Positions 2-7,683 of a stretch of DNA of 8,486 nucleotides are shown one piece after another; within the stretch, counting starts at the first letter, position 1; each line of letters begins with the position of its first letter. Location of the stretch: IMG/VR virus record IMGVR_UViG_2634166492_000010; one strand, written 5' to 3'. The position numbers were made by a program, and so were the translations under genes. This DNA comes from a virus (Duplodnaviria > Heunggongvirae > Uroviricota > Caudoviricetes). The notes beneath the pieces are model-generated. The model worked only from the letters and a program-made list of their open reading frames with translations. It was not told the DNA's origin and made no database searches.

Positions 2-286
2 ATTACCGCGCCGGGTTACTGGTTTTACCGCAATGATGAATTTGTCTTTGACTACAGACTCAAAGCGGAAGATGAGCGTGATGCCCTTCTGGCTCAGGTC
101 AGTGCCCGGACAGGGGAATGGGAAGAAGACCTGCTGCTGGGGTTAATCAGCGACGAAGATAAAGAAAAGCTGAAAGCCTGTCGTATTTACGCGAAATCGC
201 TGCAGGCGATGGATTTCAGCACCATCACTGATAAATCCTCATACAACGCCATTGAATGGCCTGCCTCTCCGGAAGGTTCTTCCTGA
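2..286 (+). CDS. Phage tail fiber assembly protein (Tfa / P2 gpG / Mu U-like), C-terminal fragment; 5' end lies outside the window
   Basis: Frame 2 is open from the window edge to TGA at 284-286 and is not in the ORF track because it has no start codon in the window. Translation ends ...DEDKEKLKACRIYAKSLQAMDFSTITDKSSYNAIEWPASPEGSS, matching the conserved C-terminal pattern of Caudovirales tail fiber assembly proteins (acidic stretch, then a hydrophobic motif ending in EWPxxP). It lies immediately upstream of a tail fiber gene. Confidence 0.55.
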   Translation: MTAPGYWFYRNDEFVFDYRLKAEDERDALLAQVSARTGEWEEDLLLGLISDEDKEKLKACRIYAKSLQAMDFSTITDKSSYNAIEWPASPEGSS

Positions 287-309
287 TTTAATTTATCGCG
301 AGAAAAACA

Positions 310-1449
310 ATGTCTGTAGTGATATCAGGTGCGCTGACTGATGGCGCAGGTATCCCCATGTCCGGATACCATATTATTCTGAAATCCCGGGTAAACACCC
401 CGGAAGTGGTGATGAACACTGTTGCTGATGTGATGACAGGAAACGATGGTGAATACTGTTTCCATGCGCGGACTGGAAAATATGGTGTGTATCTGAAACA
501 GGACTGGCGCAACGAGTACAACGTTGGCGACATTGCTGTATATGAGGACTCAAAGCCCGGCACGCTGAATGACTTTCTGATTGCTCCTGATGAGGGCGAC
601 CTGAAACCGGATGTCGTCAAACGCTTTGAGGAAATGGTGGCGCAGGCGCAGCAGAGCGCCGGGGCCGCAGCCGGAAACGCACAGCAGACGGCGCAGGATG
701 TGGCGGCAGCCGCAGGTTATGCCCGCGCAGCAGAGCAGGCCAAAAATGACATTGATGCTGCGCTGACCGGCACCCTGAAAACGGCTAACCATCTGTCTGA
801 AATCGCAGCAGCAGGCGAAAAGGCACAACAGAAGTCCCGGGATAATCTGGGGCTGAAAAGTGCGGCCACGATGGAAGCACAGAGCGACATTTACGACCGG
901 ACAAAAGGCCGTCTGGCGATACCCGGCGCATTCGGCTTTGGGTGTGCTTTTCTGCCTGAAGATGTTATCCGTTTTGACACTAAGAGTGATTTCCTGGCCT
1001 GGGTAAGGAATGCGCTGCCAGGTGAATATTCCGTTGCTGGCCCTTACGGCATCATCATACCCGACACACGGTTTGAAGGGGTGCTCAGCATCCGGTGGAC
1101 TGATGCACGCCCTGAGACAACAGAACCGCGGTACAGAGCCAAATCCCTTACTTTTTACGGCATTAACGGCCCCATTTATCATACCCGCTACTGCTACTGG
1201 CCCATATCCAGACTGACTGACTGGGTGAAAATAAATATAACCACAGAAGATATTATTTACAGAATCGTGGCGAGCTCTGTCCGCAACAGATGGGGAGACC
1301 CTGACATTGGCGGGCTGATTATTGCTGCGTACCAGGGAGAAGCTGACGGTGATAAAGTCATCAGACTTGTCAGGGGCAGTCATACAGAGGCTCACGACTG
1401 GGACCGGTGGGGATTTCAGTGCCCAGTACTCCCACCGGAACGTATATAG
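310..1449 (+). CDS. Side tail fiber protein (379 aa): lambda Stf-like N-terminal anchoring domain, Ala/Gln-rich shaft, unrecognised C-terminal distal domain
   Basis: ATG at 310 with a weak SD-like GAGAAA upstream. N-terminus MSVVISGALTDGAGIPMSG...VYEDSKPGTLNDFL closely parallels the lambda Stf N-terminus (MAVKISGVLKDGTGKPV...ITVYEDSQPGTLNDFL, recalled from memory). Residues about 110-190 are Ala/Gln-rich, typical of fiber shafts. The C-terminal 180 aa (Trp/Tyr/Cys-rich) did not resemble any fiber tip domain I recognise. Confidence 0.8.
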   Translation: MSVVISGALTDGAGIPMSGYHIILKSRVNTPEVVMNTVADVMTGNDGEYCFHARTGKYGVYLKQDWRNEYNVGDIAVYEDSKPGTLNDFLIAPDEGDLKPDVVKRFEEMVAQAQQSAGAAAGNAQQTAQDVAAAAGYARAAEQAKNDIDAALTGTLKTANHLSEIAAAGEKAQQKSRDNLGLKSAATMEAQSDIYDRTKGRLAIPGAFGFGCAFLPEDVIRFDTKSDFLAWVRNALPGEYSVAGPYGIIIPDTRFEGVLSIRWTDARPETTEPRYRAKSLTFYGINGPIYHTRYCYWPISRLTDWVKINITTEDIIYRIVASSVRNRWGDPDIGGLIIAAYQGEADGDKVIRLVRGSHTEAHDWDRWGFQCPVLPPERI

Positions 1450-1587
1450 CATCCCCACAATTTTTCATTACGGGATGTTCAGAGCATTCATTACCGGGGT
1501 CATATTGCGCCCTGTCCGGGGTGCCGGATGCACATGTCTCTGGCGCAATGCCCGGGCTTTTTATTCGCACATCGTGAGGAATGCACC

Positions 1588-2151
1588 GTGGAAATTAAAA
1601 AAATCATTAATCCCCGTTATACCGAAAGTGGCGCAGTAGACTGTGACGTTTTTTTTGACGACAGGGACCAGGCAGTCCCCTACACAGCCACCGCTGATGA
1701 TGTCGCACCGACGGGTCAGCAAATCTGGCAGGAACTGCAAAGTGGCAAATGGGGTGAGATAGCCCCATTCACTGTGACACCAGAAATGCTGGAAGCGGCC
1801 AGAGAGGCCAGACGTCAGGAAATTGAAGCATGGCGCGCAGAACAGGAGGCGAAGCCGTTCACGTTTGAATGGAACGGTCGTATCTGGAATGCTGGTCCCG
1901 ACTCACTGGGCCGCCTGTCCCCGGTAGTCATGCTGGCAAAATCTGTCACAGCACAAACACATATGGCGTGGAGCGATGCGGATAATCAGCAGGTGAAACT
2001 GTCGATGCCGGAACTGGAAGAACTGGCGGCAGCAATGGTGCAGGCGCAGGTCGATCGCAACGATGAGATTTATCGCCGTCAGCGGGAGCTGAAGGAAGAG
2101 CTGAATAGTCTGAAGGATTTGAATTCGGTTAGGAATTTTATCGTGGAATAA
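1588..2151 (+). CDS. Tail fiber assembly chaperone, DUF4376-like; probable GTG start at 1588 (ORF track extends the frame to ATG at 1528)
   Basis: Open frame to TAA at 2149-2151. GAGGAA SD about 7 nt upstream of in-frame GTG at 1588; the N-terminus from the 1528 ATG (MHMSLAQCPGFLFAHREEC) looks non-native. Motifs EIEAWRAEQEAKPFTFEWNGRIWNAGPDSLGRLSPVVMLAKS and the C-terminal coiled-coil-like RQRELKEELNSLKD match DUF4376 proteins encoded downstream of enterobacterial prophage tail fiber genes (from memory). Confidence 0.6.
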   Translation: MEIKKIINPRYTESGAVDCDVFFDDRDQAVPYTATADDVAPTGQQIWQELQSGKWGEIAPFTVTPEMLEAAREARRQEIEAWRAEQEAKPFTFEWNGRIWNAGPDSLGRLSPVVMLAKSVTAQTHMAWSDADNQQVKLSMPELEELAAAMVQAQVDRNDEIYRRQRELKEELNSLKDLNSVRNFIVE

Positions 2152-2351: not shown

Positions 2352-3209
2352 CTAATTGGGTGATAACAGATCCTGTGTATGGGCGTTTCCCTTTGTGCGT
2401 GCGTTGATGCTGGTAACGGTAAACGTCATGATGAACACGACCGCGAATAAGACGACAATCGTCGGAGCTGGTGCGCTGTCGATAAAAAAGGACAGCCAGA
2501 CACCAGTCATTGACACTATTACCGATATGCCAGTCGCCAGTAGGAGCGCAATATGAAAGCGTTGTGTCAGGAGTACTGCAATGGCGCCAGGCGCAATGAG
2601 CAGAGAAATAGAGAGAATGATACCTACTGCTTTCAGCGTCGCCACAATGGTCAGGGAAACCATGCACAGCAGCCCATAATGCAGCCATCTCGTATGCAAA
2701 CCGCTTACCTGCGCCTGTTGATAATCAAAGCTGAACAGCAAAAAATCCCGCCATTTTACGCTAATAACAAGTGTAACCAGCCCGGCAATAATCACCGTCT
2801 GGATTATATCGCCGATGGTTATCCCGAGCATGTCGCCGAAAAGAATATGGTCAAGATGTACGTCTGGTTTAATTGCAATATACAAGATCAGACCTGCGGC
2901 AAACATGCCAGAAAAAACAATCCCCATAACTGTATCTTGCTTGATTCGGCTGTTGTCTTTCAGGTATCCCGTCGCCACCGCGCAGAATACTCCGGCGACG
3001 AATGCCCCTGTAGCCAGAGGTAACCCCAGAATCCAGGTAAGCACGATGCCAGGAAAAACCGCATGACTCATCGCGTCACCCATCAGTGCCCAACCTTTCA
3101 GGACCAGAAAGACCGACAGCAGCGCACAGGGTATGGAAACTACCAGTGAAATCAGCAGTGCGTGACTCATAAAGGTGAACTGCAGTGGCTCCAGTAATAA
3201 TGCCATCAT
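2352..3209 (-). CDS. sitD: Manganese/iron ABC transporter permease SitD
   Basis: 285-aa polytopic membrane protein ([24 protein letters not shown]...), the second of two paralogous permeases, typical of Mn/Zn/Fe cluster-9 ABC importers. Its start overlaps the sitC stop by 4 nt (ATGA). Operon order A-B-C-D matches sitABCD. Confidence 0.92.
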   Translation of the reverse strand: MMALLLEPLQFTFMSHALLISLVVSIPCALLSVFLVLKGWALMGDAMSHAVFPGIVLTWILGLPLATGAFVAGVFCAVATGYLKDNSRIKQDTVMGIVFSGMFAAGLILYIAIKPDVHLDHILFGDMLGITIGDIIQTVIIAGLVTLVISVKWRDFLLFSFDYQQAQVSGLHTRWLHYGLLCMVSLTIVATLKAVGIILSISLLIAPGAIAVLLTQRFHIALLLATGISVIVSMTGVWLSFFIDSAPAPTIVVLFAVVFIMTFTVTSINARTKGNAHTQDLLSPN

Positions 3210-4063
3210 GAGCGATCCTCCAGCGCTTTATGCGTACGCCGACGATTTGCCAAAAGTCCATGGGTGGGCGCAAATACAAATGCTAAAAGAAACAGCAGTG
3301 TCTGCGCCACCACGATGATTCCACCTGTCGCGCCGTCCAGAAAGTAACTGACCCACGCGCCGAGGAAACTGGTTACACTGCCAATAGTTACAGCAATTAT
3401 GAGCAGGCGGGGAAAACGATCGGTTAACAACCATGCTGTTGCACCGGGAGTCACCACCAGACAGATCACCAGAAAGGCACCAACCGTTTGCAGCGCCGCA
3501 ACGGTCGAAACCGACAGCAGGGTGAAGAAGAGGATTTTTAATCTGCCCGGATGTAATCCAATAGCACGGGCGTGATTCTCGTCGAAAAAGGTCACCATAA
3601 GATCTTTCCATTTGAAAAAAAGCACGATGATCGAGAGAATGCCAATGATAGTGAGTTGCAGGATATCCGCCGGATCGATTGCCAGAATATTGCCCAGGAC
3701 GATGGTCTGAATGTTCACGGATGTCGGGTTCAATGACACCATAAACAGCCCCAGGCCAAAAAAGGACGAGAAGATCAGGCCGATGATGGCATCTTCTTTT
3801 AAGCGGGTGCGTTGGTTAAGAAACAGCATGCTGCCCGCTGCCAGTCCGCCGGAAAAGAAGGCTCCCAGAGAAAACGGAAGCCCCAGCATATATGCCCCCG
3901 CAACACCCGGGACAATAGAGTGCGACAGCGCATCGCCAATCAGCGACCAGCCTTTTAGCATCAGATAGCATGACAGGAAAGCGCAGAGACCGCCGACCAT
4001 TGCCGAGACCCACATCGCATTGAGCATATATTCATAGCTGAAGGGTTCCAGTAGCACGTTCAT
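3206..4063 (-). CDS. sitC: Manganese/iron ABC transporter permease SitC
   Basis: 285-aa hydrophobic membrane protein ([25 protein letters not shown]...), paralogous to the downstream permease. Its start overlaps the sitB stop by 4 nt. Confidence 0.92.
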
Positions 4064-4887
4064 CTTGCTTCCCTCTGCACCGCTGACGGTCGATGTGCCA
4101 CAAAAGGGCGTTCATCGTCAGTAATAATGCTTTCTTCCGAGCCGTTAAGTGTGACATGGCGCAGTACGCCGCTAAAAGCCAGCTCCAGGTTCTCGGCTGT
4201 AAAAGTGGTGTCTGTCGGCCCGCTTGCCAGGACTGTGCCTTTGACCATGACCGTATAATCGCAAAATGTCGTGACTGAGCCGAGATTGTGCGTTGAGACA
4301 AGCATCGTTTTGCCTTCCGCGCGTAACTCCCTCAACAGGCTGATGATTTTCGCTTCGGTTTTCACATCAACGCCGGTAAAAGGTTCATCCAGCAGGATCA
4401 CATTACCCTGCTGTGCAATCGCTCTCGCCAGAAAGACGCGTTTCTTTTGTCCACCGGAAAGCTCGCCGATTTGACGATGGCGAAAATCCACCATATCGAC
4501 ACGTTCCAGCGCATCGGTGACAATCTGACGATCCCTCTTTTTGGCTATACGCAACATACCCATATGCCCATAGCGGCCCATCATCACCACATCTTCCACC
4601 AGTACAGGAAATGACCAGTCAACCTCTTCTGACTGAGGAACGTAGGCAACCAGGTTTTTCTGTAGCGCCTGTCGCGTGGGAATACCCAGAACAGATATCT
4701 TTCCGCTGGTCAGACGCACAAATCCCATAATCGCTTTAAACAACGTCGATTTTCCGGAACCGTTTACCCCAACCAGAGCGGCAATAGATCCACTTGGTAC
4801 TGTGAAGGATGCATCGCGCAGTGCTGTGTGCCCGTTACGCCAGGTGACAGTAACATCATTAACGACAATGCCTGCAGATTGCATCAT
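4060..4887 (-). CDS. sitB: Manganese/iron ABC transporter ATP-binding protein SitB
   Basis: Walker [13 protein letters not shown] signature LSGGQKKR, Walker B ILLDEP and an H-loop (STHN) are all present. Its ATG overlaps the sitA TAA (TAATG). Confidence 0.93.
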
Positions 4888-5801
4888 TATTTCTCCCTTT
4901 TCCCGGCTTTAATTCCCTGTACCAGCGTACTGGTAGTAACCTTAAGAAGGTCGATATACGTAGGTACCGGGCCGTTTTCTGTGCTCAGGGAATCGACATA
5001 GAGCACACCGCCGTAGTGTGCGCCGGTTTCACGCGCAACCTGACGCGCTGGTTTATCGGAAATCGTACTCTCGCTAAAGACTGCCGGGATATGATTTTTC
5101 TTAACTATATCAACAACCTTACGTACCTGCTGCGGTGTTCCTTGTTGATCGGCATTAATCGGCCACAGATAAAGCTCTTTTAGCCCCAAATCGCGTGCGA
5201 GATAAGAAAAAGCCCCTTCACTGGTGACCATCCATCGCTGATTCTCAGGGAGTTCCGTAATCTGCTTACGCAGGGGGGCAAGGGTTTGGGTAATCTTGGC
5301 TTTATAAGTATCGGCATTACGTTGGTAGGTTTGTGCATTTGCCGGATCGTATTTTATCAACGCATCACGAATATTATCGACGTAAATCAGAGCATTATCT
5401 GGCGATATCCATGCATGGGGATTAGGTTTGCCCTCATAGGGTCCTTCGGTGATCCCTACTGGCGTCACACCCGAAGAGACAATTACTTCTGGAACCCCAT
5501 TGAGATGCTGGTAAAAGCGTTGGAACCACAATTCCAGATTCATACCATTGGCGAGAATCAGTTGTGCCCCCTGCGCACGTTTAATATCGCCAGGGGTAGG
5601 CTGATACTCATGAATTTCTGCACCAGGCTTGGTTATGGATGAGACTTCTGCAGCATCTCCAGCCACGTTTTTGGCCATATCCGCGATGATGGTAAATGTT
5701 GTAATGACCTTGAATTTTTCAGTTGCACTTGCCTGAAATGCGATCGAGCAGGTGAGGGCGAGGCACCCCAAGAGCATGGTTACTTTTTTTATTGAGTGCA
5801 T
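4887..5801 (-). CDS. sitA: Periplasmic metal-binding protein SitA (Mn2+/Fe2+ substrate-binding component)
   Basis: 304 aa with an N-terminal signal peptide ([26 protein letters not shown]). Cluster-9 substrate-binding protein character ([28 protein letters not shown]). First gene of the operon, with metalloregulator boxes upstream. Confidence 0.93.
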
Positions 5802-6142: not shown

Positions 6143-6418
6143 GTGGCTTCCATTTCCATCAGATGTCCTTCCTGCTCCGCTACTGAAGGCGTGGTGCGTA
6201 ACGGCAAAAGCACTGCCGGACATCAGCGCTATCTCTGCTCTCATTGCCGTAAAACATGGCAACTACAGTTCACTTACACCGCCTCTCAGCCCGGTACGCA
6301 CCAGAAAATCATTGATATGGCCATGAATGGCGTCGGATGTCGCGCCAGTGCACGCATTATGGGCGTTGGCCTCAACACGGTTTTACGTCACTTAAAAAAC
6401 TCAGGCCGCAGTCGGTAA
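6143..6418 (+). CDS. insA: IS1 InsA (transposition inhibitor / N-terminal part of the InsAB' transposase)
   Basis: 91 aa [43 protein letters not shown]... with zinc-finger Cys pairs and a helix-turn-helix region, near-identical to K-12 InsA. GTG start at 6143. Confidence 0.93.
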
Positions 6419-6840
6419 CCTCGCGCATACAACCGGGCAGTGATGTGATTGTCTGCGCTGAAATGGACGAACATTGGGGCTACGTCGGTGCTAAATCACG
6501 TCAGCGCTGGCTGTTTTACGCGTATGACAGGATACGGAGGACGGTTGTGGCGCACGTCTTCGGTGAACGCACTCTGGCCACACTGGAGCGTCTTCTGAGC
6601 CTGCTGTCGGCCTTTGAGGTCGTGGTATGGATGACGGATGGCTGGCCGCTGTATGAATCACGCCTGAAGGGAAAGCTGCACGTTATCAGCAAGCGTTACA
6701 CTCAGCGCATTGAGCGACATAATCTGAATCTGAGACAACATCTGGCAAGGCTGGGACGGAAGTCACTGTCGTTCTCAAAATCGGTGGAGCTGCATGACAA
6801 GGTCATCGGGCATTATCTGAACATAAAACACTATCAGTAA
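6337..6840 (+). CDS. insB: IS1 InsB frame (expressed as the InsAB' transposase by -1 frameshift at the A6C motif)
   Basis: 167-aa frame ...[28 protein letters not shown]...[42 protein letters not shown]..., near-identical to K-12 InsB. The A6C slippery site lies at 6394-6400. Confidence 0.9.
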
Positions 6841-7683
6841 GTTGGAGTCATTACCTGCACGCTTTTCTTTTAGCCATGTCGGTGTACCGTCGTTGGCAAA
6901 TAATTCACTGTTATCCCGTGAGGTATCGATGCCGAGGTGTTCACCTCCCAGGTTAAGAAACTCGATATGAGGAAGAAAGTTTTTAAATGTTGGGTTTGAA
7001 AATACCTGTCCATCAATACGGGTGGAGCGATCTTTTAGTATTCTGGCGGTGCGCCACACCTGACCGGTTTCTATGTTCATTTGCTTCTCCATCTGGATCA
7101 GGATGGAGGGTTCATAACCGGTTTCTGTTTCTGCTTTCATTTTTATACCGGTTTTTGCCAACTGGCGTTTGCCATCATCACCTTCGAAAAAGTCATACTC
7201 ATATCCTGCACGCCCGCACATAATAATGTGCGCCTGACTGTTAACAAATCGATCGGTAAAGCGTCGCCACTCCTGTTTGAGCCACGCCCAGTCTGAAAAT
7301 TCCAGTCCTCGTTTACGGTTTCGGCGTCTGGCATACTCGTCGCATAATCCGGTCCAGAAGTGACTGATGGAGTCGATGATCATTACGGAACCGCTGCTTT
7401 CCGCTTCATTAATGGCTTCAAGCAGATCAACAAACGAGCGGGTTTTTGCCGTAAATAATTCGATATTTTCCGCATCAAAGCGGGGTTTAACCCAGTCAGA
7501 GCCTGTTTCTGTGTCCAGAAACATTACCGGGCGGTTACCAGCTTCAATTCCCCGTTGCCGCATAAGCATTACCAGACCAATAGCCAGTTCGCTTGCTGTG
7601 TAGGTTTTGCCGTCGCCAGCAAACCCCATAATTCCTGCTTTTAGATAGGCCTGTGTGTTTATTGCTCGTTGAAAAAGCGCCAT
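6775..7683 (-). CDS. Phage-associated P-loop NTPase (RecA-like; AAA_24/Sak4-like is the best guess); native 276 codons (6856..7683) fused to 26 IS1-derived codons, so 3'-truncated by IS1
   Basis: Walker A GFAGDGKT at residues 19-26, followed by FLDTETG; Walker B-like MIIDSISHF. The C-terminal 26 aa ([26 protein letters not shown]) are translated from the IS1 terminus, so the native 3' end is missing. ATG at 7683 is preceded by GGAGG lying inside the upstream gene's end (translational coupling). Family assignment is from motif pattern only. Confidence 0.6.
6833..6855. repeat. IS1 terminal inverted repeat, insB-proximal end
   Basis: atcagtaagttggagtcattacc, the reverse complement of the canonical IS1 end (ggtaatgactccaacttactgat). 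Confidence 0.85.

Follow-up and report, generated by a model that had tools for sequence, protein, structure and literature searches.

In the side tail fiber of phage lambda, Stf, the C-terminal end is a T4 gp37-like, His-rich region; the assembly protein that goes with this fiber belongs to the Caudo_TAP (PF02413) family. DUF4376 proteins have been shown by experiment to serve other fibers as chaperones: the gp26 protein of Alteromonas phage V22 binds cells only after co-expression with gp27, a DUF4376 protein (PMC7289586), and the Campylobacter CJIE1 H-fiber requires the DUF4376 gene that lies downstream of it (PMC7882524). The related gp9 chaperone of phage A5 was proposed to be a transient cap (PMC10579305). 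In the Vibrio myophage XM1, the 100-residue N-terminal domain of gp40 binds neck proteins (PMC10457771).

The window, i.e., the whole stretch of 8,486 nucleotides analyzed here (IMG/VR record IMGVR_UViG_2634166492_000010), is very probably the end of a decayed phiP27/Rac-type prophage of Shigella or enteroinvasive E. coli, in which a modular fiber gene, now frameshifted, and its cognate DUF4376 gene are followed by sitABCD. Signs of decay are the IS1 and IS3-family elements within the window and the differing indels found in other Shigella copies of the same module.

Gene order in the window and in related prophages

At the left end of the window lies the 3' part of a tail fiber assembly (Tfa) gene (2..289, plus strand), whose 5' side is cut off by the contig start; its match to PF02413 Caudo_TAP (3.1e-20) covers profile positions 39-131 of 131. 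This remnant is a member of the prophage's preceding fiber/Tfa pair: at the equivalent position, E. coli VL46 encodes a complete 181-aa "tail fiber assembly protein" with a "phage tail fiber protein" before it. The fiber ORF as read in the window follows at 310..1449 and the DUF4376 gene at 1588..2151, both on the plus strand. The sitDCBA genes occupy 2352-5801 on the minus strand, after which come IS1 (insA/insB, 6143-6840), a Sak4-like AAA_24 ATPase ORF (6775-7683, minus strand), a Gam homologue (7689-8009, minus strand) and, at the contig end, only the start of an IS3-family orfA (8048 onward). The ATPase ORF is truncated by IS1, its last ~34 codons running into the element. Both it and the Gam homologue are early-region prophage genes, apparently brought beside sit by an IS-mediated rearrangement. 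A scan of positions 1-2400 for promoters and terminators gave nothing over shuffle expectation.

The closest relatives of the locus are in Shigella flexneri, S. sonnei, and enteroinvasive-type E. coli. The order in VL46 is baseplate hub, spike, sheath initiator, baseplate J/gp47, DUF2612, a first fiber, Tfa, and then the present fiber, followed by DUF4376, sitDCBA, and uspF; the module thus closes a contractile-tail gene set. The terminal order of phiP27 is the same (L54-L57, then attR), and Rac-SA53 has tail1-4 followed by attB and uspF. Because this terminal order is common to VL46, phiP27, and Rac-SA53, the sitABCD iron/manganese transporter looks like cargo carried at the end of a phiP27/Rac-type prophage. 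Note that in VL46, sitABCD lies between the fiber/chaperone module and uspF, where Rac-SA53 has attB (L001 11353-15823; L005 4979-5309).

The complete genomes of S. flexneri SFBU1023 and of "E. coli" ECMA0423 (L006-L014) each contain four to five copies of the fiber/DUF4376 module. Only the sit-linked copy is intact in these two genomes; the others have either a 4-nt deletion in module A (the first of two tip modules, see below) or a 1-nt insertion in the chaperone gene. That the draft contig begins within the upstream Tfa gene is probably due to this multi-copy repeat.

Anchor, shaft, and reading frame of the fiber gene

Residues 1-131 of the fiber (310..702, plus strand) match PF08400, "prophage tail fibre N-terminal", at 2e-70 and 235.5 bits (cut-off 26.6), and residues 1-92 are 47% identical over 92 aa to the 94-aa "Tail fiber protein" chain of PDB 9e7m (E 2.4e-16), which we take to be the lambda Stf N-terminus. 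A preliminary description of the locus had proposed just such a lambda Stf-like N-terminus followed by an Ala/Gln-rich shaft, and both are present, the shaft being a short one by direct sequence reading (aa 132-178; 703..843, plus strand). The gene's assignment as a side-tail-fiber-type protein with a lambda Stf-like anchor is therefore supported. Shaft length differs among alleles, even near-identical ones: P0002 and P0021 have ~46 additional shaft residues and P0001 has fewer, and the shafts of UMNF18 and P0090 are much longer. Anchors are also exchanged within the family; it is PF08400 here, and the P2 gpH-like PF12571 in E. coli proteins of 416 aa with 43-48% identity in the tip.

The end of the ORF does not follow the frame of its relatives. 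A run of four Gs at 1373..1376 (plus strand) aligns with five in E. coli VL46 (L001), which is ~99% identical, and the 1-nt deletion shifts the frame after codon 356; codons 357-379 of the window ORF (SHTEAHDWDRWGFQCPVLPPERI, 23 residues) are thus out of frame. Five Gs were present in every S. flexneri/E. coli copy examined (9/9 copies in two complete Shigella-type genomes, L006-L014), and other full-length E. coli matches were one base longer than the query, as expected from a G5 run. In S. flexneri SFBU1023, the copy next to sit encodes an uninterrupted protein of 422 aa; only 19 differences in 4573 nt, the missing G among them, set it apart from the window. The intact 422-aa protein ends in ...LPGSYCALSGVPDAHVSGAMPGLFIRTS, and this end is conserved in >40 diverged homologues. 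In the window, its native continuation (QSYRGSRLGPVGISVPSTPTGTYIASPQFFITGCSEHSLPGSYCALSGVPDAHVSGAMPGLFIRTS) is found at 1377-1577 in another frame, where it restores the motifs GSRL, LPGxYxALSG, and GLFxRxx; in alignments of 13 and of 44 diverged homologues these motifs vary little or not at all. The end of the UMNF18 fiber (664 aa) can be aligned with this continuation too.

Two further comparisons place the break at the same site. The ORF matches PHROG 2636, "tail fiber protein", at 3e-174 and 582 bits, with the best stretch running from residue 133 to 358 against profile positions 272-503 of 568, so that the match ends at the frameshift. The complete set of tip motifs (GGLxxAAY, GSRL, LPGxYxALSG, and GLFxRxx) is present in the intact allele (P0003, L007) and is not found in a single frame of the window ORF, because those beyond GGLIIAAY sit in the other frame, at 1377-1577. 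Overall, the frameshift costs 66 of the 95 residues of the distal tip module (~70%), and 23 unrelated ones stand in their place.

Judged from these alignments, the window ORF comes from a prophage tail fiber gene that encodes 422 aa when intact and is frameshifted here, and the window copy most likely cannot make a functional fiber, because the GSRL, LPGxYxALSG, and GLFxR motifs of the distal module are lost. The preliminary description had taken 310-1449 to encode a complete fiber of 379 aa. That is indeed the length of the ORF as read, but the gene's true length is 422 aa and the end is wrong. The ORF is what a frameshift has left of a longer fiber gene, and a truncated remnant of this kind is one of the outcomes that the preliminary description had named as refuting its reading. 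The unusual C-terminal sequence that had drawn attention to the locus is partly an artifact of reading frame, as the out-of-frame tail accounts for 2/7 Trp and 1/3 Cys residues in the reportedly Trp/Tyr/Cys-rich last 180 residues. That a seemingly unrecognizable end can be due to a frameshift is a caution for any reading made from sequence only.

The missing G could itself be a sequencing or assembly artifact, in which case the strain would encode the intact 422-aa fiber. This is unlikely, although it deserves more weight than the other two readings of the ORF considered here. Just one base differs, it lies in a homopolymer, and the contig is a draft; no contig other than that of the window itself is on record with the exact 379-aa protein; the four to five near-identical module copies per Shigella genome complicate a short-read consensus; and S. 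flexneri SFBU1023, ECMA0423, and the complete E. coli genomes all have an intact copy beside sit. However, Illumina errors at runs of four or five Gs are uncommon, real indels are clear in other module copies, and another S. flexneri protein record (P0021, representative of a 16-member cluster), which has a longer shaft, shows the same shifted end, ...GFQCPVLPPERI. Because a protein with a different shaft carries the same shifted end, we favor a real frameshift. It is far less probable that the 379-aa ORF is a complete and functional short fiber whose Trp/Tyr/Cys-rich C-terminal 180 residues constitute a new receptor-binding domain. Past residue 131 the ORF has no Pfam, NCBIfam, or PDB sequence match, and fold matches are weak, but its last 23 residues are out of frame with respect to all homologues, the invariant terminal motifs are absent, and RefSeq has annotated E. 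coli and Shigella proteins with 98-100% identity to the in-frame part, which belongs to PHROG 2636, a family already represented in sequenced phages. Equally improbable is that the G run serves as a slipped-strand switch or a programmed frameshift site, turning the fiber on and off or giving two products. The indel does lie in a homopolymer, and the shifted end is common to two allelic backgrounds; on the other hand, four or five Gs are short for phase variation, the run is G5 in VL46 and in all nine copies of the two complete Shigella-type genomes, a slippery heptamer is absent, and the shifted product would be without any conserved tip motif.

A different alternative concerns where on the virion an intact fiber would sit. 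The N-terminal 212 residues (window 310-945) match the XM1 gp40 "collar spike" (7kjk, E 8.7e-6), and the intact parent in VL46 has contractile-tail baseplate genes with a separate fiber/Tfa pair directly behind them; the present fiber comes after that pair. Because the N-terminal domain of XM1 gp40, which is alike, binds the neck, the protein might be a neck (collar) fiber of a contractile-tailed phage that aids reversible adsorption, and not the primary receptor-binding protein. We put this forward only tentatively. The match to the 9e7m chain is much stronger, and lambda Stf is located in the tail tip region; moreover, position on the virion is not readable from sequence, and a neck location would bear on where the fiber is attached and not on the nature of its tip. 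The frameshifted side-tail-fiber-type gene remains our preferred description of the ORF.

Tip modules and the DUF4376 partner

The true C-terminal 244 aa of the fiber consist of two modules, as seen when a profile of these residues was mapped back onto its matches. Searched against 1.84 billion representative proteins, the profile found 115 clusters, 74 of them below 1e-30. Module A (profile positions 1 to ~140; aa 179-323, window 844..1278, plus strand) is made up of the conserved neck motif QSDIYDRTxGRLAxPGAFGFG, KSAATMEAQSDIYDRTKGRLAIPGAFGFG in the window, and an alpha/beta knob ending in GWxxL. It behaves as an independent unit, occurring one to three times per fiber and also upstream of other endings, e.g., in P0153, whose end looks by eye like an S74-type intramolecular chaperone and lies only downstream of module A. 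Module B (profile positions ~143-245, ~95 aa) is always C-terminal and also follows other upstream modules (P0165, P0184, P0186). In the intact protein it spans aa 328-422 (window 1291..1577, plus strand, with the stop codon at 1575-1577), and in the window it is read in frame 1 to 1376 and in the other frame over 1377-1577. Family members P0068, P0069, P0073, and P0090-P0095 have two or three module A knobs and then a single module B, and the linker joining knob to knob in such fibers is conserved ("APLxSPAFTGTPTTPTPPDDA...LDTLNELAAALGNDPNFATT").

The tip has no close match of known structure in the databases searched. From residue 132 to the end, no Pfam or NCBIfam model matches; a profile of 44 tips found nothing among PDB sequences at E up to 1; and Pfam, NCBIfam, and PDB sequence searches with either the single sequence or the 44-sequence profile gave no match for the tip. 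The T4 gp37/lambda Stf His-rich, collagen-like, and S74 types had no C-terminal match among the Pfam models past residue 131 or in the PDB profile search, in agreement with the preliminary description, which had recognized no known tip type. The AlphaFold2 monomer model built from the 44-sequence alignment (pLDDT 91.5, pTM 0.74) has two well-predicted alpha/beta regions; confidence is lower between them, around residue 145, in keeping with the division into two modules; pLDDT over module A is 85-97. Foldseek found no PDB match for the tip at E <= 1e-3, and from the weak fold matches the predicted tip looks like the distal knob or foot domains of other fibers, with no close solved relative. Among the closest known systems are the knob/foot domains of the R2 pyocin, Mu S, and T4 gp34 fibers and the C-terminal domains of the Staphylococcus phage K gp144 / phi812 receptor-binding protein.

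The family itself is not new. It is catalogued as PHROG 2636, generically annotated, and structurally unsolved; it occurs in the sequenced phages phiP27, Rac-SA53, Av-05, SerU-LTIIb, and Goslar, and it is widespread in E. coli/Shigella prophages and found in some lytic phages as well. Related loci were found in Escherichia/Shigella, Salmonella, and Yersinia at least, a species list that is a lower bound because the search, made from a 13-sequence alignment, used a single peptide pattern. The suggestion of a plausible new receptor-binding domain therefore stands in part: the family has no solved structure, and the literature searched contained no functional study of it and reported no receptor, but its members were already known in PHROG 2636 and RefSeq. 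Column entropy peaks at residues 81-100, 111-150, and 191-215 of the tip alignment, and the variable tip loops are likely the determinants of specificity.

A gene with a PF14301 match (1.2e-16) lies immediately downstream of the fiber gene on the same strand, as the preliminary description had stated in naming a dedicated DUF4376 chaperone. The mechanically called ORF begins at ATG 1528 (1528-2151, 207 aa). Its match to PHROG 1141 (2.8e-88) aligns from residue 19 of the 207-aa ORF, and in 16 loci, among them UMNF18, phiP27, Rac-SA53, Av-05, Salmonella, Yersinia, and every Shigella copy, the alignment of the homologue begins at the residue that GTG 1588 encodes. The chaperone start is for that reason most likely GTG 1588 and not ATG 1528, giving a predicted protein of 187 aa. 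The sequence GAGGA at 1576-1580 is 7 nt upstream of this GTG and overlaps the stop codon of the intact fiber, and the GTG is 10 nt past the stop of the intact frame. The same spacing holds elsewhere: in 16/16 loci (E. coli, Shigella, Salmonella, Yersinia, and three phages), the DUF4376 homologue starts 0-16 nt past the fiber stop. The chaperone is 75-80% identical to its counterparts in UMNF18, phiP27, and Rac-SA53 (L002, L003, L005), compared with 35-37% for module B. PDB and NCBIfam sequence searches gave no match for the chaperone.

By analogy with the DUF4376 partners of other fibers, we infer that the enterobacterial DUF4376 protein is a fiber chaperone. In an intact copy, the lambda Stf-type N-terminal domain would dock the fiber trimer on the virion, and the short Ala/Gln shaft would lead to the neck and knob of module A and then to the ~95-aa distal tip of module B. 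The DUF4376 protein would fold and trimerize the fiber from its C-terminal end and may remain transiently on the tip, and the variable loops of both modules would contact a receptor on the cell surface. In the window copy, the loss of one nucleotide from the G run would spoil the tip by shifting the frame after codon 356.

The window locus is an ordinary decayed prophage fiber module and of little importance in itself. The intact family is an uncharacterized modular tip with a well-conserved, dedicated DUF4376 chaperone, and its unsolved fold is mildly interesting. It is possible, although we would not expect it, that the two modules and the enterobacterial DUF4376 protein form a structurally distinct class of fiber tip, confined to phages and prophages of Enterobacterales and having its own receptor, the chaperone then serving many specificities alike, as an assembly factor or as a cap. 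If true, this could be useful for fiber engineering. With a fiber-chaperone complex solved and its receptor found, one more tip type would be available when host range is to be predicted or when phages or tailocins are to be retargeted to Shigella and E. coli.

Comparison with known fiber systems

The DUF4376 partners V22 gp27, A5 gp9, and that of CJIE1 are, like the protein described here, ~190-240 aa long, encoded directly downstream of the fiber gene, and have a C-terminal PF14301 domain, but the fibers of these three systems are unrelated in sequence to that of the window. Lambda Stf with Tfa shares the overall plan, i.e., a PF08400 anchor, a shaft, an exchangeable tip, and a downstream assembly protein. 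However, the lambda Stf tip is unrelated in sequence to the tip of the window fiber, the partner here is a DUF4376 protein, and the parent prophage has a contractile tail.

The Stx2e phage phiP27 (AJ298298; L56 and L57) and Rac-SA53 (tail3/tail4) share the gene order at the right end of the prophage, i.e., fiber, Tfa, a PF08400-type fiber, and DUF4376, with the attachment site next. The N-terminal ~110 residues of their fibers are ~85% identical by eye, the neck motif is retained, and both modules have homologous counterparts at 33-37% identity; the chaperones are 78-80% identical. Both fibers, at 490 aa in phiP27 and 1061 aa in Rac-SA53, have longer shafts than the window fiber, and their tips have diverged from that of the window and probably differ in specificity. 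The frameshift and the sitABCD genes that come next also set the window copy apart from both.
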